Both the position numbers and the translations under genes were made by a program. Positions 3,219 through 64,000 of a stretch of 64,000 bases of DNA are shown here, in pieces. The stretch's first letter is position 1. Every line of letters starts with the position of its first letter. This DNA is from Candidatus Nomurabacteria bacterium. Lineage in GTDB: Bacteria; Patescibacteriota; Minisyncoccia; Phycocordibacterales; UBA9973. The notes beneath the pieces were generated by a model that saw nothing but the letters and a program-made list of their open reading frames with translations, ran no database searches and had not been told where the DNA came from. Where the stretch lies: positions 30,754 through 94,753 of the forward strand of contig JARIGO010000022.1 in the NCBI GenBank assembly GCA_029288805.1, given 5' to 3'.

Positions 3219-4350
3219 ATGCGCTTTTTTGATATCTTGAAACATTTAAGACAATACCGGAAGCAAAGAGGGCGATGGCAAGAGAGGTTCCCCCTTGGGA
3301 GACGAAGACAAGTGGCACGCCGGTTAGTGGAAAGAGTCCGACAAGAGATGCCATATTGAGGAAGGATTGTGAGACGAGCACTGTCACGATACCGACGACA
3401 AGATATTGTCCAAACATGTCTCGAGAATTAATGGCAATTTTGTACCCTCTGATAGCCAGGAAAACATACAACACTACAAGCAATGCACTGCCGATAAAAC
3501 CGAACTCTTCACCAATAACGGCATAAATAGAGTCACCTTGCGGTTCAGGCAAGTAATTGAACTTCTGAACGCTTTGCCCCAGTCCTCTACCGAGTATTCC
3601 TCCGCTACCGATGGCAATAAGACCTTGCTGGAGCTGATATGAGGAGCCTTGTGCATCACTGGAAGGATTGATGTACGTTTTGATACGACTCATGAGGTAT
3701 GGGCGAACGAGTGCCAAAAGCAAAATACCGACAAGACCAACAACAACGATAGAAATAATCTTCTTCCATGACACCCCTGATACGAACAGCATGCTACATG
3801 CTGCGGCAGTGATCAAAATAAGACTTTTGGTATCAGGCTGAAGCAACAATGCTCCGGCAACCAATCCAAGCATGACTGTAAACGGCAAAAGCTTGTATTT
3901 AAATTCCTCTTTTTTCTTACTGGTCCATGCGAGCCATGCTGCAAAGTACGTTACGAATCCCAGCTTTAGTATTTCTGCGGGTTGAAATGATACGCCTGCA
4001 ATTGAAATCCAGCGCCGGGCACCGCCGTGCCTAAACCCTAAGTGCGGAACAAAGACTGACAGTGTTAGCAGTAGCGTAATAATGAAGATAACAAATGCAT
4101 TGTTACGCCAAAAGTGATAGGGGATTTTTATTGCCAACCACAACAACGCCATGCCACCCACGAAACCAAGGACGATCTGGGCAAATAGCACCCCGTAAAA
4201 TTTCGCGTCACTTTGCGCCAGGATACCGAGAGAGGCAGAGACAAAAGAAATAATTCCGATTACGGAAATCAGAATGACAAGGCCAAAAAAGTACGTATCA
4301 AATTGTTTTGGTTTGACGACGACTGACATATTACTTACTAATGATAACAA
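3217..4350 (-). CDS. ftsW: SEDS-family peptidoglycan glycosyltransferase (FtsW/RodA)
   Basis: 377 aa with about 10 TM helices and the conserved C-terminal SEDS block (GGILGRGLGQS...DSIYAVIGEEFGFIG). Lies between murG and mraY. Confidence 0.85.
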   Translation of the reverse strand: MLSLVSNMSVVVKPKQFDTYFFGLVILISVIGIISFVSASLGILAQSDAKFYGVLFAQIVLGFVGGMALLWLAIKIPYHFWRNNAFVIFIITLLLTLSVFVPHLGFRHGGARRWISIAGVSFQPAEILKLGFVTYFAAWLAWTSKKKEEFKYKLLPFTVMLGLVAGALLLQPDTKSLILITAAACSMLFVSGVSWKKIISIVVVGLVGILLLALVRPYLMSRIKTYINPSSDAQGSSYQLQQGLIAIGSGGILGRGLGQSVQKFNYLPEPQGDSIYAVIGEEFGFIGSALLVVLYVFLAIRGYKIAINSRDMFGQYLVVGIVTVLVSQSFLNMASLVGLFPLTGVPLVFVSQGGTSLAIALFASGIVLNVSRYQKSA

Positions 4351-8251: not shown

Positions 8252-8288
8252 AAAAAAGCCCTGGAACTATGTCCTAGGGCTTTTTGTT
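8252..8288. terminator. bidirectional terminator between the 8288-8758 gene and the aspS promoter region
   Basis: GCCCUGGAAC-uau-GUCCUAGGGC hairpin with 9 of 10 pairs, flanked by a T-run on the plus strand and an A-run that reads as a T-run on the minus strand. Confidence 0.5.
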
Positions 8289-8758
8289 CAACTAAACACC
8301 GATGCGTACATGGGGTTTAACGGAACACGATAGCTTGTTTGGCCTTCAAGAGGCATAAACGGCAGATCTTTTTTGGTAACGGTCAATGTTCGCATGGAGT
8401 ACATGGGATCATAAGCACGATGCTCTACAGGATCTTTTTTCTGAAAGTGTGTAAAATGAAGAAGATGGACAACGCCTTTTGGCTCCTCATACAGTAAATG
8501 ATCGAGGGTACGGTTGCATACGACGAAATCTATCGCGTATTTCTTTTCATCTATAAAGACCTTGTAATGAGAACGGCCACCTTTGATCCCGGCCACAACA
8601 ACACCCATAAAAATTGCCAGTCCGGAGAATGGTGTTGCACAAATAGCCATCTCGCCGTCAGTAAAGTGAGGCCATACCTCATTAAATTTGCTTCCACTAC
8701 CGTGAAGCAGGCACTGTTCGTGCAGAACCGCCTTGTTAAGTATCTCTGTATTGTTCAT
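8288..8758 (-). CDS. hypothetical protein, possibly a permuted papain-like (NlpC/LRAT-type) Cys/His hydrolase
   Basis: 156 aa and soluble. His-rich N-terminal segment followed by an AICATPFSG Cys segment. No confident family match from sequence alone. Confidence 0.45.
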   Translation of the reverse strand: MNNTEILNKAVLHEQCLLHGSGSKFNEVWPHFTDGEMAICATPFSGLAIFMGVVVAGIKGGRSHYKVFIDEKKYAIDFVVCNRTLDHLLYEEPKGVVHLLHFTHFQKKDPVEHRAYDPMYSMRTLTVTKKDLPFMPLEGQTSYRVPLNPMYASVFS

Positions 8759-57447: not shown

Positions 57448-58335
57448 TTATCGAGGGAAAATATCGAGCAATTCGTTTGACTGGTAGAACAATGTACCAA
57501 GCTCGCCAAAGGCATATTGCTGACCACCGAGCGTAATGGTAGAACCCGCAACCTTAGGATTGGCATTTGGGTGTGAGGCACCAAATCCAATATTAAAGAG
57601 CGTTACCACGACATCCGGACGAGCGGTAACGTCATATCCAGACGCAGCCCATTGCGCTTCAATTTCCTTGATGAAGACCGCCGTATACAAATATGAGTAA
57701 TAGTGGTTGTGTGCATCAGTAAGACGGTTGTACAAGGTACTGTCATGATCTGCACCTGCAGGATATGCCAAGAGCGGTGCAATATTTGGACCAGGATAAA
57801 ACGGTGAGCTTGGATCGTTGGCATAGTTTTCGATCTGCGTAGCAGTATCCTGCTTGATGCCGGACACTCCCAATGAGAACTTGGACAATGAGGAAAGAAT
57901 CTTTAACGGTTCAAAATATTTCTTGAAACTTTCGCGGTTGGAAGTGAAATATCGCAATTGCTCCGGTATGACTGCAGCGGCAATCATGCGCTCTGGCACG
58001 CCCGTCTGACTTGAAACCTGCTCCAAGACACTGCCGTCTTTTGTGAGCGCATTCTGCAAGACATTCCATTCCTCGGTCTGATCCCAGTCACATGTCTTTG
58101 GCGTCTTGCCATTCACTGCCTGACAGGTGCTCGTCACTGTTGTGTTGGGCACAGCACCAAGAGAAACATTACGAACAGCGCTGGAGCCACGAACATTAAA
58201 GAGTCCGTACTGCATTGCCACAAAGACACCGGCAAAGACCAAACCGATGAACGCGAATAGCAGGATGATGATAAATACATAGCGGCGGATGCCAAACTTA
58301 GTATTGAGCCAGGAGAATGGGCGGAATTTTTTCAT
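57448..58335 (-). CDS. hypothetical N-terminally anchored extracytoplasmic protein
   Basis: 295 aa. One TM near the N-terminus, then a Cys-containing globular domain. No family assigned. Confidence 0.45.
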   Translation of the reverse strand: MKKFRPFSWLNTKFGIRRYVFIIILLFAFIGLVFAGVFVAMQYGLFNVRGSSAVRNVSLGAVPNTTVTSTCQAVNGKTPKTCDWDQTEEWNVLQNALTKDGSVLEQVSSQTGVPERMIAAAVIPEQLRYFTSNRESFKKYFEPLKILSSLSKFSLGVSGIKQDTATQIENYANDPSSPFYPGPNIAPLLAYPAGADHDSTLYNRLTDAHNHYYSYLYTAVFIKEIEAQWAASGYDVTARPDVVVTLFNIGFGASHPNANPKVAGSTITLGGQQYAFGELGTLFYQSNELLDIFPR

Positions 58336-58367: not shown

Positions 58368-58400
58368 AAAGAAAAGCCTTTCCAAAGGAAAGGCTTTTTA
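58368..58400. terminator. bidirectional terminator bounding the housekeeping block
   Basis: AAAAGCCTTTCC-aaa-GGAAAGGCTTTT hairpin with T-runs on both strands. Confidence 0.65.
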
Positions 58401-58566
58401 ATATAACTATATAGTGAAGGTATTCAATCCGAAGAGTGAATACCGTGATTGCGAAAAGAACAGATTAAAGAACTTTTATATCTATAATGTATCAGATAGA
58501 ATGCAATTTGTCAAGGGCATTTTTAGGCAAAGGAAATGGCCCGGTTACTACGTAACCGGGCCGTGC

Positions 58567-58920
58567 TCACGACAACACTTCCCACACGCCGAAGATCGTG
58601 GAGAGCTTGTTTAGAATTGTCAGGTGGTGTTTTTGAACAAACCGTTTTATGTGTGGTTCCGCTTGGGCCACATACACAATGAACTTGCCGCGGTAGGTCT
58701 TATGAATTTCTGCATAGAATTCTTCCAAAGAAGGATTGCTATCATCAAATTCTACTTCAAACATGACAGACGTAACGTTCACGGCGGACAACACTGCCTC
58801 CGCTTCCCTAACTGTAGAAACGACGTGAATGTCATCGTTTGGCATGTACCTACGCAGGTCAGCTACAAACTTTTCAAACGGGGTCTTGCTAAAAAACAGG
58901 ACAACTTTTTTCTTTTGCAT
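58567..58920 (-). CDS. hypothetical protein with a receiver/flavodoxin-like alpha/beta pattern but no conserved phospho-acceptor Asp
   Basis: 117 aa. The VVLFF / IHVV / SVMFEVEF / FIVYVA beta-strand periodicity resembles a CheY fold. The acidic pocket residues are not conserved. Confidence 0.35.
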   Translation of the reverse strand: MQKKKVVLFFSKTPFEKFVADLRRYMPNDDIHVVSTVREAEAVLSAVNVTSVMFEVEFDDSNPSLEEFYAEIHKTYRGKFIVYVAQAEPHIKRFVQKHHLTILNKLSTIFGVWEVLS

Positions 58921-58999
58921 AATATAAAAACTTTTCTTTAGTATATATCAGATTTATTGACAAGTCAATATAGTGTGTTAAAGTAAGAAAAACATTCAA

Positions 59000-59536
59000 A
59001 TGATGAAAAAGAAAGATCTGTTGCTCGAGCAAATTCTTGGTCAGTGTTACATGGGATCCAGTACAAACTACTGGGTACCGTTGACAATCTATAACCCTGA
59101 GGCTCACTCGTACCAAACTCGTTATTTCAACGCCACGGATGTCTACCGCATGCGACAGGCGGGCATAGAGTGGCTGGTGCAAATGTGCAATCACGCTTTA
59201 GCGGAAAGATCCGAGCCATGGTGGCACCATGCATGGAACATTCGAGAACACCTTGAAGTTGACCCTGCAAAGTATATCTTTCCTGAGACGGACAAAATTG
59301 GAAGTGACGTCGAGAAAGAAAAAATTCTGCAGGCACTGTTTTGGTTTGCTAAGCAACTGTACGTTTGCAAGCGCTACAAATGGCGCCAGCCCCTCCTTTG
59401 GGAGGACATGAGAAAAGATTATCTCTCTTCAAGAAAATTTTTTGGCGCAGCTTCACCGTTCCACATACGCCTTCTGATGCTTCATATTGCCGCACAGATC
59501 GGCTACAACGAACTAGGAAATGTTGCGGGTGACTAA
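59000..59536 (+). CDS. hypothetical protein; C-terminal R-x4-H (RLLMLH) hints at a HEPN-like fold
   Basis: 178 aa, Trp-rich and helical. The call is speculative. Confidence 0.35.
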   Translation: MMKKKDLLLEQILGQCYMGSSTNYWVPLTIYNPEAHSYQTRYFNATDVYRMRQAGIEWLVQMCNHALAERSEPWWHHAWNIREHLEVDPAKYIFPETDKIGSDVEKEKILQALFWFAKQLYVCKRYKWRQPLLWEDMRKDYLSSRKFFGAASPFHIRLLMLHIAAQIGYNELGNVAGD

Positions 59537-59702
59537 ATGACCTAAGTCCTTCTTTAATACGGAGGGACTTTTTTATTTGTGAACTTGCGGCTTGCAGGAA
59601 ATAACACCCAGTTGACTACCGCTTTTACTTCCCTCTCCAAAAATCTCTTGGGAACAAAGGAGTTTTGGGAAAAAATCAGACATGATCTGGTAAACCTTAA
59701 AT

Positions 59703-60290
59703 CTATATCAAACGAAATACTGCGACAATAAACAATATCAGACCAAGAATAAACGAGGAGATGAAGGCGTAATAAATTATATTCAAAAAAAGTGCAGAGG
59801 AAGGCTTCATATTATTAGCAAACCTTTTGTTCTCCTCAATACTGTCTTCATTATACTGATCTATTTCTTCCGTAGTGAGAGTATTATCGTTCGCACTCAT
59901 TAGTATCGGCTTTATTAAGTCCAGTTGTTTCCCAAGCGACTTCATTTGTATGTCAGCGATCTTATTTAAATCCTTCCTGTCTTTTATTGGAGCATAAATA
60001 CTTAGAATAAATCCAAGTATGAACGTCAGTATAAATACATACATATCTGATCGAAGAATGATGTGGCTGAAATGTAGTGAAGACTGAAGAGCTAATGGGA
60101 TTACCACACCAACCACAACTATGCTGGCACTGATCAAAGCTAAATTTAGATTGTATTGTTTATCAGAAGTATTACGAAGTCCCTCTTGAATAAATTCAAC
60201 TTGAGAGTGATAAATGTCAGTTATTCTGTCTCTTGACCGTGAATATTCTTGCTTCGCGAGTTCCATTTGTTTTACAGAAAGTTGTGACAT
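59703..60290 (-). CDS. hypothetical membrane protein (AT-rich gene)
   Basis: 195 aa. N-terminal charged coiled segment and 3-4 TM helices. GC is noticeably lower than in the core genes. Confidence 0.45.
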   Translation of the reverse strand: MSQLSVKQMELAKQEYSRSRDRITDIYHSQVEFIQEGLRNTSDKQYNLNLALISASIVVVGVVIPLALQSSLHFSHIILRSDMYVFILTFILGFILSIYAPIKDRKDLNKIADIQMKSLGKQLDLIKPILMSANDNTLTTEEIDQYNEDSIEENKRFANNMKPSSALFLNIIYYAFISSFILGLILFIVAVFRLI

Positions 60291-60413
60291 TAATGTATTA
60301 TATCATTTTTGAGTTCGATTCCCCGTAACGTCTTAGGTTATTTTCAGAGAAATGAATTTGAAAACGGCCTTATAAATCAATGTTTATAAGTGTTTGAGGC
60401 TGTGAGCCGCGAG

Positions 60414-60485
60414 TGACCCTACGGGGAATCGAACCCCGATTAACGGCTTGAAAAGCCGGCGTCCTAACCGTTAGACGATAGGGCC
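60414..60485 (-). tRNA. tRNA-Glu (anticodon UUC)
   Basis: Manual cloverleaf: acceptor GGCCCTA/TAGGGTC, D-arm GTCT-AACGGTTA-GGAC, anticodon arm CCGGC-TTTTCAA-GCCG(T), 4-nt variable loop, T-arm CGGGG-TTCGATT-CCCCG, discriminator A, no encoded CCA. Confidence 0.85.
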
Positions 60486-60519
60486 AAATGAGCATTAGAA
60501 TAATGCCAACGTATTATAA

Positions 60520-60570
60520 ATAAAAATAGAAAAAAGTAAACCGCGCTTATGCTTCCATAAGCGCGGTCTT
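60520..60570 (-). terminator. terminator of the 60547-61080 gene; stem overlaps the stop codon
   Basis: ACCGCGCTTATG-gaag-CATAAGCGCGGT 12-bp stem on the minus strand, followed by TTTACTTTTTTCTATTTTT. Confidence 0.6.
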
Positions 60571-61080
60571 GCAAAGTAAGGGTGCGGTCTCATACCTAAA
60601 TGAATACAATTCGGCAAATACACATCCTTGATTGCTAAAAGAGACATAATAGACTTCATCCGCACGCGGTGGGTTTAGAGGAAACACCGTGCAGATAATA
60701 GGTCGTGGAGGGATACATAATGATGATTCGTCCTTCCTTGTACCGCTAAACTCAGGCTCAATTGCCTCAATGACATCACCGGAAGCAAAAACGATAAGCT
60801 TTTTCCCAGTTTCCTTCAGGAGCTTTAGAAAATGAAGCTTGCACATTTTGGGAAAACTCCTTGGCGGTAAGTGCCCGTACGTTTCCTCAATTTGTGGAGC
60901 GTCGAGATACAGGGTCCTGTGCGGATCGTTATCGTCCTCAATCATTTCCATCAGTCGTCCGGGAATTGAAATCTTGCAGATTTCAGGTTCGATACTGCTG
61001 TTCATTGGGCTCTTACACCTGGGTAATAAGCTCTTGCCATACTCAATGAATATGATCTCTGTTTCTTTAAGAAATCGCAT
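60547..61080 (-). CDS. hypothetical protein located between two divergent tRNA genes
   Basis: 177 aa and soluble, with several Cys. No recognisable family. Confidence 0.45.
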   Translation of the reverse strand: MRFLKETEIIFIEYGKSLLPRCKSPMNSSIEPEICKISIPGRLMEMIEDDNDPHRTLYLDAPQIEETYGHLPPRSFPKMCKLHFLKLLKETGKKLIVFASGDVIEAIEPEFSGTRKDESSLCIPPRPIICTVFPLNPPRADEVYYVSFSNQGCVFAELYSFRYETAPLLCKTALMEA

Positions 61081-61162
61081 AGTTAGTAAATTAAGGTATT
61101 TCTTCCAGTTTGCCTAAAATGCATTTTTTTGTCAAACTAGTCCGGTACCACTTCCCAACCCC

Positions 61163-61236
61163 GCGCGGTTAGCTCATATGGTTAGAGCGCAGCATTGACA
61201 TTGCTGAGGTGACAGGTTCGATCCCTGTATCGCGCA
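61163..61236 (+). tRNA. tRNA-Val (anticodon GAC)
   Basis: Manual cloverleaf: acceptor GCGCGGT/ATCGCGC, U8A9, D-arm GCTC-ATATGGTTA-GAGC, anticodon arm CAGCA-TTGACAT-TGCTG, variable AGGTG, T-arm ACAGG-TTCGATC-CCTGT, discriminator A. Confidence 0.9.
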
Positions 61237-61266
61237 CAGTATTAGACTGTAATTCGAAAAAGTAAA

Positions 61267-61307
61267 AAGCCTTATAACGTAAGGCTTTTTACTTTTCAAA
61301 AAGATTA
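61267..61307. terminator. long bidirectional hairpin between tRNA-Val and the GC-rich ORF
   Basis: AAAAGTAAAAAGCCTTA-taacg-TAAGGCTTTTTACTTTT, a stem of about 17 bp. Confidence 0.6.
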
Positions 61308-61325
61308 ACAATTTATAAAATATGC

Positions 61326-61607
61326 CTACACCTTGTAATGGCTGGAACCCCTGCGGAACAGCCTGTCCAGGAACCTCTTCTCAACCCTGGACTGCAGCTC
61401 CTCCCGTGACAGTGGCCTGCTGAGGTACACAAGCCGGTACAGCTGCGCCAGCCTAAAGAGCTCGTCGCGCGCCTGCTCGTCGCTCAGCACCCTTCCGTAC
61501 GCCTTCTCGTACAGCCCTTGGAACGTTTTCAAATTTTCTGGTGTCATGTCCATGCCCGCATGATGACACGCGGTGCCAGCCTTGGCCAGGGCTGAGTCGG
61601 CGGGCAA
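61326..61607 (-). CDS. hypothetical protein encoded in a GC-rich (about 60%) segment; likely horizontally acquired fragment
   Basis: 93-aa ORF. Local composition differs sharply from the flanks (runs like ctgcgccagcc, gtcgcgcgcctgctcgtcgctcag). It lies 90 nt downstream of the tRNA-Val 3' end. Confidence 0.35.
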   Translation of the reverse strand: MPADSALAKAGTACHHAGMDMTPENLKTFQGLYEKAYGRVLSDEQARDELFRLAQLYRLVYLSRPLSREELQSRVEKRFLDRLFRRGSSHYKV

Positions 61608-61658
61608 TTTACCTTACATAACTTTATTATTACTTTAAGATACAGATGCTATGATCTA

Positions 61659-62396
61659 TTGATGAAAGAAAGTATTCCATTAATAGACCCAATTTGGTAT
61701 TCCCCCGTTGTGGTGTTAAACCATGTTACAAGACTGACAAATTCACTATCTGAAAAAGACAGGAAGAGTAAGGAGTTTAGGAAGGTTGTTGAGGCACGAG
61801 CAGCCGCAATTACGCTTTTGGGTTTGATGAAGATTAACGGTACTCAATATTGGATGCAGATTGTGGATGATAAAGAGAGAAGCCCCGACATAAGAACTAT
61901 TTCCTATGCGACGGAGCAGCCGGAAAAATTTGACAACATGGAGCAGCAAGATGTCGAGGTAGTTGAATATGAGCAACATTCAGAAGGGGCCATTCCGGAG
62001 TTCTTAGCCTCGACCAAGTTTGGGCCCGGAAAGAGTTACGACGAGCAAACCCATATTCTTTGCCACCTGGGAGAAGGGACTGTCATAAATTTACCTGATA
62101 TTACTGAGATGAAAAACCAAATGGCCATAATCAATACAAAATCACCGATAGTATTATTAGGGGCAACTTCTCAGGAAGCCACTGACTATCAAATTATTCA
62201 ATTGAATCCCGGTGTTGGTATTTTGGTTGAATTCAACGTTGAGGATGAGGAGCGCATTTTATTCGGAAGGCCCGACTATAAAGGTATCATGTATTTTAAA
62301 AGGGGCTCAAGAAAACCCAGTGTGCATGATCCTAACGATAAGCATTATCCATTTGAAAATATAGGATATGTTCCTGATAAAAATGGCAATTATTGA
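61659..62396 (+). CDS. hypothetical protein
   Basis: 245 aa, soluble and acidic, in an AT-rich context. No motif assigned. Confidence 0.45.
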   Translation: MMKESIPLIDPIWYSPVVVLNHVTRLTNSLSEKDRKSKEFRKVVEARAAAITLLGLMKINGTQYWMQIVDDKERSPDIRTISYATEQPEKFDNMEQQDVEVVEYEQHSEGAIPEFLASTKFGPGKSYDEQTHILCHLGEGTVINLPDITEMKNQMAIINTKSPIVLLGATSQEATDYQIIQLNPGVGILVEFNVEDEERILFGRPDYKGIMYFKRGSRKPSVHDPNDKHYPFENIGYVPDKNGNY

Positions 62397-62523
62397 TATT
62401 ATGTTCTCCCCCACTTATTAACAATAGAGAAGTATTGTTTATCAGAATTTCTCACAAAGAAGTTCCTGACTTCGTACAATAGAGAGCACCAAGACGATAT
62501 TGACGATGTTTTTTGAAATAAAA

Positions 62524-62555
62524 AAGCCTGCAATATTTAAATAACAGGCTTCGGT
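62524..62555. terminator. bidirectional terminator between the convergent 61659-62396 and 62568-62873 genes
   Basis: AAGCCTG-caatatttaaataa-CAGGCTT hairpin with flanking A/T runs. Confidence 0.4.
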
Positions 62556-62567
62556 AGTTGAATTGGT

Positions 62568-62873
62568 TTACATCTTATGTTCCCATCCAGCTTTGGTTAA
62601 TATTTCAATTATTTGATCTTCTTTTAATTCACAGACATCTTTTTGCTGTGCATCAAAGTATTTTGCTTGACCACTTGCATAAAATGACCATGCCGGCACA
62701 CCTACTATGGTTGCGGCACTCGGACTAAAACCTATGCATGCAGAAAAGGTATCTCCTGGAGAAAATCCGAGCTCTCCTTCGAAAGTCATTCTGAACATGA
62801 GTATGTTCTCAGAATTATTTTTATCCGGAAAAACCTTTAGGTCAATTATTGTCATGACATTAACTTTATTCAT
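62568..62873 (-). CDS. hypothetical small protein (cassette gene preceded by repeat copy A)
   Basis: 101 aa. Has the same upstream repeat arrangement as the 63135-63563 gene. Confidence 0.4.
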   Translation of the reverse strand: MNKVNVMTIIDLKVFPDKNNSENILMFRMTFEGELGFSPGDTFSACIGFSPSAATIVGVPAWSFYASGQAKYFDAQQKDVCELKEDQIIEILTKAGWEHKM

Positions 62874-63011
62874 CGCTATATAAGTTTAATTGTTTACCGC
62901 AAATTCCATAAGAATTTCTGGTAAACACTTAAACCATTACAAAGAACTTTACGTTAATATAATATCACGTTTTATATTAAAAGTCAATAGATCCGTATCG
63001 GTTCAATGTCC

Positions 63012-63062
63012 TTAAATACCCTATTCCACTTCAAAATAATACCTTGCACCGTGTTCCATTAC
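63012..63062 (-). repeat. repeat copy A: diverged coding remnant (…WNTVQGIILKWNRVFKD…) homologous to copy B
   Basis: About 75% nt identity over 51 nt with 63620-63670. The minus-strand translation aligns with copy B at the protein level, but is bounded by stop codons on both sides. Confidence 0.6.
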
Positions 63063-63097
63063 TAACTCGTGACCGAACCTTTATCGCTCACAAATTG

Positions 63098-63128
63098 AAA
63101 AGGCTTCTATAAAATAGAAGCCTTTTTA
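63098..63128. terminator. terminator downstream of the 63135-63563 gene
   Basis: AAAAGGCTTCTAT-aaaa-TAGAAGCCTTTTT hairpin. Confidence 0.6.
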
Positions 63129-63134
63129 AGGAAT

Positions 63135-63563
63135 TTAAACAAAATGGAGTTCTCTGGCAGTAGTAACTTGACTGTACTCAAACAAGTCGAGCGTATGGTC
63201 GTTTAGTCGAACAGAATGGTGGAACCAAAAATTTATTCCTTTCTGAACTTCGTGGCCAGTAACCTCACAATATGCAGGGTACTGAATTGCATTAATAAAG
63301 TTTTCGATAGTCTCTTTAATGGTCGTACCACGTATCTTATCTTCAAGGGTTTTTCCATTAACATCCTTGAAGACAATGTAGCCCTCGCCAACAACGTTTA
63401 TGTAATATCCATCACCAGTAGTGGAAACGCACAATATGTTGTGGTCTTTTAAATGATAGTAACCACTTTTCCCATACGTAAATTTAAAAATTTCTTGCAT
63501 GCCTTTTAGGTATGCAAGCGGCTCCTTTTCTGTTGGAAGCAGTATTTGTTTTCTATAGTCCAT
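63135..63563 (-). CDS. hypothetical small protein, possibly SMI1/KNR4 (SUKH)-like immunity-type protein
   Basis: 142 aa. ILCVSTTGDGYYINVVGEGYIVFKD and the overall beta-rich pattern weakly resemble SUKH-1 immunity proteins. A toxin-remnant-like ORF ends 17 nt upstream. Confidence 0.35.
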   Translation of the reverse strand: MDYRKQILLPTEKEPLAYLKGMQEIFKFTYGKSGYYHLKDHNILCVSTTGDGYYINVVGEGYIVFKDVNGKTLEDKIRGTTIKETIENFINAIQYPAYCEVTGHEVQKGINFWFHHSVRLNDHTLDLFEYSQVTTARELHFV

Positions 63564-63579
63564 TTTTTTAAAGTTTTAC

Positions 63580-63726
63580 TCATATTGCCTTATGCAGAGA
63601 ATAAGTCAACCCTCTTTGTTTAAAGACCTTATTCCATTTGATAACAATATTCTGCACGGTGTCCCATTCCAGGCCGCTAACGCGCACAAATTTGACATTT
63701 CTTCCACGTAAGGTAAGGTAAAGAAA
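63580..63726 (-). pseudogene. short ORF/remnant containing repeat copy B (…RVSGLEWDTVQNIVIKWNKVFKQRGLTYSLHKAI*) ending 17 nt upstream of the 63135-63563 gene
   Basis: Open minus-strand frame of about 48 codons bounded upstream by TAA, with only TTG/GTG possible starts. It is homologous to copy A, which points to the C-terminal fragment of a larger gene family. Confidence 0.4.
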
Positions 63727-63751
63727 ATTCAAACTTTAAAAAAATACTCAT

Positions 63752-64000
63752 TATGGACCTTAAAGAAAAAACCATAAAAGACTGGCGAGAAGAGTACTTG
63801 AATGACTTCCTTCCTTCAAAGAAAAGAATGCTCCAACAAATTAACCTTCAGGAAGTGGAAATAATGACAGGGCTCATTAAGGCTATTAAAGAAGCCATCC
63901 CTGCAGGAAAATGGAAAACATATTTTGACGAACATCTTGATTACTCACTTCCGTGGGAAAGAACGGTTATTTCAAACAGCGAAGGTGCTAAGGGTCATCT
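63752..64000 (+). CDS. hypothetical protein, 5' part (continues beyond window)
   Basis: Open frame from ATG 63752 (MDLKEKTIKDWREEYLNDFLPSKKRML...) to the window edge. Confidence 0.4.

Follow-up and report, generated by a model that had tools for sequence, protein, structure and literature searches.

The window analysed here is a stretch of 64,000 nucleotides (nt) from Candidatus Nomurabacteria bacterium (GenBank assembly GCA_029288805.1, contig JARIGO010000022.1, positions 30,754 to 94,753), a member of the candidate phyla radiation (CPR). The subject of this report is its last 5.6 kb, in which copies of a small open reading frame (ORF) recur beyond a tRNA-Val gene, each beginning at a near-copy of the 3' end of that tRNA. 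Genomes of CPR bacteria are very small and streamlined, and little is known of how they gain and exchange accessory genes. Positions 1-58400 of the window form a dense run of housekeeping genes, including those for DnaK, MreB, aminoacyl-tRNA synthetases, SHMT, DnaB, FtsZ/FtsA/FtsW, RRF, and ribosomal proteins. This run stops, as the initial annotation had it, at a terminator near 58.4 kb, and the synteny with the closest relatives, the loci L001 and L002, breaks off at about 58375 (tblastx). At the hairpin at 58372-58398, conserved synteny ends and a first variable segment begins. From there to the window end, two tRNA genes, nine ORFs of 50-245 amino acids (aa), and one ORF running past the window end were identified. 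The features at the center of the argument are the following.

60413-60485, minus strand: tRNA-Glu(UUC), identified by ARAGORN and Rfam; conserved core
60547-61080, minus strand: o177, a fast-evolving gene of 177 aa between the two tRNA genes; conserved core
61163-61237, plus strand: tRNA-Val(GAC), identified by ARAGORN and Rfam; conserved core
61228-61237, plus strand: last 10 nt of tRNA-Val, TATCGCGCAC, the putative attachment (att)-like core
61238-63091: putative cassette 1, with o93, o245, o101, and junction copy c1
62987-63091, minus strand: c1, degraded small-ORF junction copy with a 12-nt insertion and two in-frame stops
63082-63091, plus strand: core copy of c1, TATCGCTCAC, matching the tRNA-Val end at 9/10 positions
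63092-63687: putative cassette 2, with o142 and junction copy c2
63580-63687, minus strand: c2, intact small-ORF junction copy of 35 codons from GTG, its stop 16 nt before the ATG of o142
63678-63687, plus strand: core copy of c2, TAACGCGCAC, matching the tRNA-Val end at 9/10 positions
63688-63735, minus strand: conserved right arm beyond the c2 core (AAATTTGACATTTCTTCC...GTAAGGTAAGGTAAAG on the plus strand), common to the L058 and L059 junctions

Both tRNA genes are real and divergent, as first described, with ARAGORN and Rfam in agreement, and Rfam identified tRNAs only within the region. By using the 295-aa protein at the housekeeping edge as a query, a total of 46 related loci were collected from species-representative genomes, all belonging to Nomurabacteria, Paceibacterota, or other Patescibacteria; the identity of this protein was 73-80% in the closest relatives (best, 80%). 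The tRNA-Val/tRNA-Glu pair with a gene of about 0.6 kb in between recurs in L001, L002, L006, L008, L009, and L058, and the pair and its gene are inverted as one unit in L003, L012, and L055. Matches to o177 by tblastn fall between the tRNA genes of L008 (E 1e-8) and L006, the same slot is filled by ORFs in L001, L002, L008, and L058, and among the ORFs of 58.4-64 kb, o177 alone has relatives in the 46 loci. In each relative, other genes occupy both the slot from the 295-aa gene to tRNA-Glu and the slot beyond tRNA-Val. Because the unit and the weak but significant relatives of o177 recur in the same slot, tRNA-Glu/o177/tRNA-Val is a conserved core and not part of an island, and the region consists of two hypervariable segments around this core. 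The earlier proposal of an accessory island at a tRNA hot spot thus stands for the two flanks, of which the content differs from genome to genome with presence/absence polymorphism among relatives, but not for the conserved unit between them. Duplicates of tRNA 3' ends, which support the hot-spot claim, are present at the locus.

A gene of 150-190 aa is always found between tRNA-Val and tRNA-Glu in this lineage (window, 60547-61080; L001, 5181-5720; L002, 4105-4560; L008, 3977-4558; L058, 11890-12402). It is fast-evolving and without a family match, and its members share an N-terminal motif like (I/V)(I/V)FIEY..S.LPRC.SP; a conserved gene locked between two divergent tRNA genes is an unusual arrangement. 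In comparison with L001, L002, and L008, the inverted units are located at 5852-7158 of L003, 174-1001 of L012, and 7846-8730 of L055. A 20-nt stretch that repeats the T-arm and acceptor 3' end of tRNA-Glu in inverted orientation, noted at the outset as a 15-nt duplicate, was located as follows.

60313-60332, plus strand: inverted copy of the tRNA-Glu 3' end, 15 nt exact and 18/20 matching

An inverted tRNA-Val fragment of 13 nt likewise lies about 100 nt past the tRNA-Val of L003. Such inverted fragments may be traces of recombination between inverted copies of tRNA ends. The tRNA-Glu fragment and the inverted pair together suggest, by inference only, that the other side of the core also recombines at a tRNA end.

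The two copies of the repeat beyond tRNA-Val (62987-63101 and 63580-63735, both on the minus strand) match each other in translation with E = 1e-4 within the window (tblastn), and match a profile built across genomes with E values of 1e-18 and 1e-20 (nhmmer). They had been described as two coding remnants, each upstream of a same-strand gene; both copies exist in this position, but only c1 is degraded, c2 being an intact ORF, and the equivalent of c1 in L059 is intact over the approximately 30 nt before its contig ends. The repeat occurs at the same relative position and orientation in L001, L002, and L008, and L053, L055-L059, and five called proteins came to light in a degenerate pattern scan of metagenome contigs and a search with a protein profile. 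A total of 15 DNA copies from 10 loci were gathered. The small ORF is free-standing, with 31-45 codons and a GTG, TTG, or ATG start, and family members of 31-42 aa were predicted by gene callers. The consensus [V/M]RDSCLEWNT[V/L]QxIVxKWNxVF[K/R]DI (about 26 conserved residues) is followed by a tail of 6-17 variable residues, which falls into a few classes common to different genomes.

Among 14 ungapped copies, the entropy was 1.04 at codon position 3 but 0.59 at the first two positions (p = 0.007 by permutation), and the pooled ratio of nonsynonymous to synonymous polymorphism (pN/pS) was 0.35 (14 copies). These values mark the repeat as a coding family under codon-level constraint, and the small ORF is presumably a real, translated gene. 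The repeat is not the tip of a larger gene, no long relative being present in the window or among 5.8 billion predicted proteins. No relative was identified in Pfam or PDB, and no description of this family, or of such arrays in CPR bacteria, was found in the literature; the family is real and previously undescribed, and its known distribution is narrow. As to its role, our best guess is a short helical factor carried by the cassette or a leader that couples the cargo. A structured RNA was rejected on the basis of the absence of an Rfam match, the near lack of conserved structure in RNAalifold (-4.4 kcal/mol), and the coding periodicity found instead. A diversity-generating retroelement was rejected by inspection, the differences between copies not being adenine-limited and no reverse transcriptase being present among the family matches of the ORFs. 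An integrase gene of SSV type split by integration was also dropped, since the small ORF begins at the core and there is no read-through.

In the tail class ..KTSS[IVL]SS.., a nucleotide repeat, ATCGTC-N3-TATCGTCA, in which the serine codon is always TCG, was observed at about 3750-3780 of L001, about 2215-2245 of L057, and 8650-8680 and 10455-10480 of L058. This repeat could represent a site on the DNA that overlaps with the sequence for the tail.

The order of a repeated coding segment and a small gene had been interpreted as a polymorphic-toxin/immunity array, with the repeats taken as C-terminal tips displaced from a large toxin gene and the gene after each tip as its immunity gene. CdiA-CT/CdiI and Rhs orphan arrays consist of a conserved, repeated segment, a variable stretch after it, and a small gene next in line, and the same order of conserved repeat, variable part, and small gene is observed here: two diverged coding-like copies each precede a small same-strand orphan gene with a terminator, and o142 starts closely (16 nt) after the stop of c2. 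Unlike in those arrays, however, the conserved part is itself a free-standing small ORF, which starts at GTG or TTG right after terminators and T-runs and not within a longer frame, and no parent toxin gene was found. The full-length gene predicted to share the repeat was absent from the window and from 5.8 billion predicted proteins, in which a profile search matched only ORFs of 31-77 aa. The variable part of 6-17 residues is too short for a toxin domain, and no toxin, immunity, or secretion family was matched in Pfam, PADLOC, or NCBIfam. A same-strand gene lies directly downstream of the small ORF in c2/o142, L058b, L058d, L002, and L001, whereas a terminator and/or a convergent gene follows it in L058a, L058c, L008, and L053, and in related genomes about one-third of the copies have no downstream partner. 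A toxin/immunity array is therefore considered highly improbable.

In the window as well as in L001, L002, L008, and L058, the 3' end of tRNA-Val is where the array begins. In L058, four small-ORF copies and one partial copy are aligned on a single strand, all pointing at tRNA-Val, with spacings of 0.37-1.4 kb. Most small-ORF starts, when written in the orientation of the tRNA, terminate in TATCGCGCAC or in a version that differs at one or two positions. The match to this core is 10/10 in seven copies elsewhere and 9/10 in both window copies, and is more diverged in L001, L053, and L055. In every copy adjoining a tRNA-Val gene, the core is in direct orientation relative to the tRNA end. The codons after the core, for EWN, read GTTCCATTCC on the tRNA strand, at the place where the tRNA has the T-arm sequence GGTTCGATCC, and the first codons of the small ORF thus appear to imitate the tRNA T-arm. 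By our own estimate, allowing for offsets, ends, and strands, the chance of ten consecutive matches at both feature boundaries is about 1e-3.

The junctions were compared between related genomes. The 63 nt after tRNA-Val of L002 and the 63 nt beyond the small-ORF start of L057b are identical at 59 of 63 positions, whereas on the other side of the 10-mer the two sequences are unrelated, with the tRNA body in L002 and the small ORF in L057b. The same flank is joined, exactly at the 10-mer, to tRNA-Val in one relative and to the small ORF in another, as would be expected of an attL-type versus an attP-type junction. A second flank class is common to window c2, L058d, and L059a (c2 is 92.5% identical over 40 nt to L058 11080-11119), and the tRNA-Val flank of L008 opens like this class. 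In L008, a 0.5-kb unit consisting of the small ORF and a 103-aa gene is bracketed as a cassette by the 10-mer (TGCGCGATAC), between a gene of the ORF125 family and tRNA-Val; the ORF125 homolog directly abuts tRNA-Val in L058 and is the gene 3' of tRNA-Val in L003.

The cassette of small ORF, o142, and terminator recurs in L059 with 87% nucleotide identity to the window, flanked by an unrelated gene on one side and by another small-ORF copy on the other. The small ORF of L059 is 92% identical to that of L058d, which carries other cargo, and 69% identical to c2, and copies within one genome are mostly not each other's closest relatives. Because the L059 small ORF is nearer to L058d than to c2 despite the shared o142, the history of the junction is not that of its cargo, an indication that the junctions undergo recombination or gene conversion.

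An inverted pair of short sequences was also observed at the junction (L057; L002, about 3895-3905): GTGTTCCATT lies within the small ORF, and AATGGAACAC is located approximately 58 nt past the core. The two are candidate protein-binding sites flanking the crossover point.

These observations altogether are best explained, with a probability of roughly 60%, by tandem accretion, at the tRNA-Val 3' end, of very small cassettes lacking an integrase. The locus would be a hot spot of the flexible genome in a Nomurabacteria-like bacterium (Paceibacterota, CPR), with its two flanks replaced from genome to genome. Each cassette would end in a junction module, in which a copy of the last 10 nt of tRNA-Val is followed, away from the tRNA, by the conserved ORF of 31-45 codons. 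The cassettes would have entered via site-specific recombination at the tRNA-Val 3' end, with a recombinase acting in trans that is encoded elsewhere or on a helper element, and recombination or gene conversion between junction copies would later shuffle the cargo. Beyond the two cassettes of the window, further cassettes probably follow past its end.

Several points weigh against this accretion at tRNA-Val. The main weakness is that the recombinase was not identified: none was found by family searches in the island, nor among the 57 ORFs (110 aa or longer) that surround the arrays of six related loci, which include no integrase or transposase, nor among the 25 listed of the 74 Pfam families matched by 58 housekeeping-side ORFs of the window. 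With its 10 nt, the core is short, and it matches at 9/10 positions in the window copies; for 12-mers with up to two mismatches, about eight further chance occurrences are found. Pairwise alignments of element to tRNA give p values of about 0.03 each at best, and the decisive junction evidence comes from related genomes and not from the window genome. The cargo genes are in both orientations, some with their own promoters, and the known copies of the small ORF, about 20, are from a narrow lineage. In addition, an att role gives no explanation of the codon-level constraint on the small ORF.

An ordinary region, fast-evolving and specific to the lineage, into which no dedicated mechanism inserts genes, would be in agreement with several of these points. 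The small ORFs would then be old tandem paralogs subject to duplication, loss, and homologous recombination, and the 10-nt match would be coincidental or regulatory. There is no recombinase nearby, the cargo genes point either way and have promoters and terminators of their own, the tail classes are common to several genomes as with old paralogs, and the individual tRNA matches are weak. Against such a region stand the break between shared flank and unshared partner exactly at the 10-mer in L002/L057, the cassette of L008 bracketed by the 10-mer beside tRNA-Val, the orientation kept by all array copies, in which the core and the tRNA end are direct repeats, and the ten consecutive matches at both boundaries. 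The ordinary region is possible but, on this balance, doubtful.

Tandem accretion at tRNA 3' ends is known, including that of cis-mobilizable elements (CIMEs), which keep attL and attR but have lost the integrase (PMC5704250). The array is similar to CIME accretion with respect to its position at the 3' end of a tRNA gene, the tandem units separated by direct repeats of the tRNA end, the lack of recombination genes in the units, and the joining of the same flank to either the tRNA or an element arm. It differs in that the units are far smaller (0.4-1.9 kb, one to three genes), the host is a CPR bacterium with no conjugative partner known, the element-side arm encodes a conserved ORF of 31-45 aa, and no cognate integrase-bearing element was found here. 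The ssrA islands of Dehalococcoides are about 12 kb long and arranged in tandem with a 20-bp direct repeat of the RNA 3' end; about half are without an integration module, and many have a serine recombinase (DsiB) module beside attL (PMC3146451). The streamlined host, the tandem islands downstream of a small RNA gene, the short direct repeat of its 3' end, and the extra conserved sequence beside each repeat, which does not align with the RNA gene, are common to both, but here the repeat is 10 nt, the units are less than 2 kb, and none carries a recombinase. New in the present case are the unit scale of 0.4-1.9 kb, the CPR host, and the protein-coding junction arm.

Integrons are also arrays of short cassettes, mostly of unknown genes, separated by a recurring junction element, and small upstream ORFs that help translation of the cassettes are known from some accounts of integrons. 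In contrast to integrons, no intI is present beside the array (island and 57 ORFs of related loci), and the junction codes for protein, has no conserved hairpin (-4.4 kcal/mol), and is not attC, the hairpins present being unrelated terminators. The cassettes, furthermore, lie in both orientations with their own terminators and some promoters, and the array is anchored on a tRNA gene and not on attI. The Xer-dependent dif modules of Acinetobacter plasmids are reported to be small accessory modules with short recombination sites and a recombinase encoded elsewhere (PMC6449649). Small modules in either orientation bounded by short sites would be a common feature. Unlike the plasmid modules, the units here are chromosomal and tRNA-anchored, and neither an XerD-type arm nor a palindromic pair was recognized by inspection. 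The core resembles the XerC arm of E. coli dif, but a dif/Xer-like site was dropped as a reading, the XerD-type arm being absent from the junctions.

More tentatively, the array might be an integron-like, dedicated gene-capture platform at tRNA-Val of Nomurabacteria-like CPR bacteria, a reading that we consider speculative. It would hold integrase-less mini-cassettes of 0.4-2 kb, each with an attP-like junction of which the T-arm-mimicking arm encodes a protein of 31-45 aa engaged in the reaction or in expression coupling. The small protein could assist a recombinase encoded elsewhere, for example in targeting or as a directionality factor, or could couple expression of the captured gene. The locus is a concrete, recurrent site of accessory gene exchange in CPR bacteria, at which a recognizable junction marks each inserted unit. 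This junction is usable as a search handle for the flexible gene pool of the lineage, mostly genes without known relatives, and also for seeking the missing recombinase, and the junction family should be a tractable model for gene flux in reduced genomes.

The genes carried beyond tRNA-Val, with their terminators, are as follows.

61258-61296: perfect 17-bp hairpin terminator between tRNA-Val and the cargo of cassette 1 (-20.7 kcal/mol, z -5.3)
61326-61607, minus strand: o93, GC-rich block (GC 0.56-0.60), a coding fragment of 75-93 aa starting about 90 nt after tRNA-Val
61662-62396, plus strand: o245, member of a 13-protein family with a moderate nuclease-fold match
62516-62546, minus strand: terminator hairpin of o101 (-12.5 kcal/mol, z -4.0)
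62568-62873, minus strand: o101, orphan gene of 101 aa with a promoter-like site at 62987-62959
63095-63129, minus strand: terminator hairpin of o142 (-15.7 kcal/mol, z -5.0)
63135-63563, minus strand: o142, near-orphan gene of 142 aa, the cargo of cassette 2
63753-64000, plus strand: partial ORF of at least 82 aa, running off the window end

Profile searches of every ORF, as had been recommended, were performed against Pfam, NCBIfam, PADLOC, and PHROGs, and no ORF of the 58.4-64 kb region gave a significant match. The description of nine short ORFs, most of them without recognizable motifs, several of them AT-rich, agrees with this result and with the GC content of o195, o101, and o142 (35-38% vs 44% for the window). 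A separate strong terminator for each of o101 and o142 was likewise found as described. The defense-type character once assigned to the region was not demonstrated: PADLOC was without a match, and the fold match of o245, of moderate strength, is the only functional hint. The evidence at the locus so far does not amount to a defense system. The small-protein family and the nuclease-like o245 family with its large operon partners are nevertheless new, and are candidates for conflict functions.

The GC-rich block after tRNA-Val is real and is located behind the 17-bp hairpin. The GC content at third codon positions (GC3) of o93 is 0.80 versus 0.3-0.5 in neighboring genes, with a clear coding signature, and its codon usage marks it as a likely foreign fragment; it looks like a recent acquisition from a high-GC donor. 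No relatives of o93 were identified in related loci, plasmids, or IMG/VR, and PDB gave matches at chance level only. The very different GC3 of o93 and the abrupt change in content and composition at 58.4 kb would also be expected if foreign DNA had been joined to a CPR contig at the tRNA genes by an assembly or binning artifact. Such an artifact is very unlikely, because the same tRNA pair lies beside the same 295-aa gene in many independent assemblies, and both the junction ORF and the o142 cassette are present again in other, independent data from the lineage.

The product of o245 is probably a nuclease with a restriction-endonuclease-like (PD-(D/E)xK) fold, as judged from the fold match. 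E44, D70, P75-D76, E99, E104, and K119 are invariant in 13 homologs and E102 is nearly invariant, but the classical (D/E)xK triplet is not obvious in the alignment. The homologs adjoin genes for large serine recombinases, Toprim proteins, and helicases in L047-L050 and L053, type I restriction-modification and NERD genes in L051, and IS200-type transposases and Dam methylase in L054, and are often the last gene after large proteins of no known family. In L053, a small-ORF copy directly follows the o245 homolog, and the recombinase gene overlaps the 3' end of tRNA-Glu(CUC); att repeats of this serine-recombinase element were looked for and not found.

This association bears on another explanation, in which the segment would be a single decayed prophage or integrative element, such as a serine-recombinase element, and the repeats its internal paralogous genes. 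Homologs of o245 ride elements with large serine recombinases and primase and helicase genes, in L053 an element of this kind contains an o245 homolog together with a copy of the small ORF, and o93 is foreign by composition. On the other hand, no phage, plasmid, or IMG/VR match was obtained for the region, o245, or the repeat, and PHROGs was without a match. Arrays with different cargo and the same junction are, moreover, present in several genomes, and the o142 cassette recurs with a different neighbor on one side. A single decayed element is thus judged to be unlikely.

The operons ending in o245 homologs are located at 4589-8738 of L053, 4999-8726 of L047, and 6374-7763 of L054. Their partner proteins (1135 aa, or 806 and 187 aa, or 221 aa) are without a match in Pfam and gave no significant match in PADLOC. 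In L047, a SNF2/ResIII helicase adjoins the operon, and the whole sits within serine-recombinase elements. These operons may represent an undescribed mobile-element or defense module.

For o101, no credible relative was identified by exhaustive phmmer search of 1.84 billion representative proteins; except for o101 itself, three weak matches were obtained to short stretches of long multi-stretch proteins, which are read as spurious. For o142, a single homolog with 86% identity was identified among the 5.8 billion proteins. The pN/pS of o142 relative to the L059 copy was 0.16, indicating purifying selection, and its structure model, with a pLDDT of 40, was unusable. The ORF at 63753-64000 has no relatives in any related locus and is unrelated to the gene at the same position in L059; it continues past the window, and therefore the variable region extends beyond 64000.

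The cargo of related arrays includes nucleotide kinases, 5'-nucleotidase, Ham1, NUDIX, histidine phosphatase, and Mrr-type endonuclease, together with many unknowns. Near the small-ORF arrays of L001, L002, L008, L055, and L058, the cargo is rich in nucleotide-handling enzymes, namely adenylate, guanylate, and cytidylate kinase-like proteins, NT5C 5'-nucleotidase, Ham1, NUDIX, and histidine phosphatase, in addition to one Mrr-type endonuclease. At the far end of the array, an ORF of 236-237 aa is present only in L002 (744-1454) and L008 (1488-2201), with 46% identity between the two. By eye, its C-terminal part resembles a helix-turn-helix of DnaA domain IV type, and this family was absent from the Pfam run (22 families at an E cut-off of 1e-4).

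The first variable segment, between the housekeeping block and tRNA-Glu, contains the following features.

58372-58398: bidirectional terminator hairpin with a 12-bp stem (-15.9 kcal/mol, z -4.2)
58567-58920, minus strand: o117, ORF of 117 aa, function unknown; no family match, absent from the 46 related loci
59000-59536, plus strand: o178, ORF of 178 aa, function unknown; no family match, absent from relatives
59544-59570: terminator of o178
59703-60290, minus strand: o195, AT-rich ORF of 195 aa (GC 0.35); sub-threshold matches only, absent from relatives

The product of o195 is probably a membrane protein, because three hydrophobic stretches are present in its sequence. The 295-aa protein at the housekeeping edge (57448-58335) is 38-80% identical across the 46 loci, many of them of Paceibacterota; it has an N-terminal membrane anchor and only a weak sub-threshold Pfam match, and is thus a protein conserved in CPR bacteria with no function assigned. 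In L001, the cargo gene that follows the small ORF (156 aa, L001 3788-4258) has a paralog of 28% identity at 8288-8758 of the window, within the housekeeping block.

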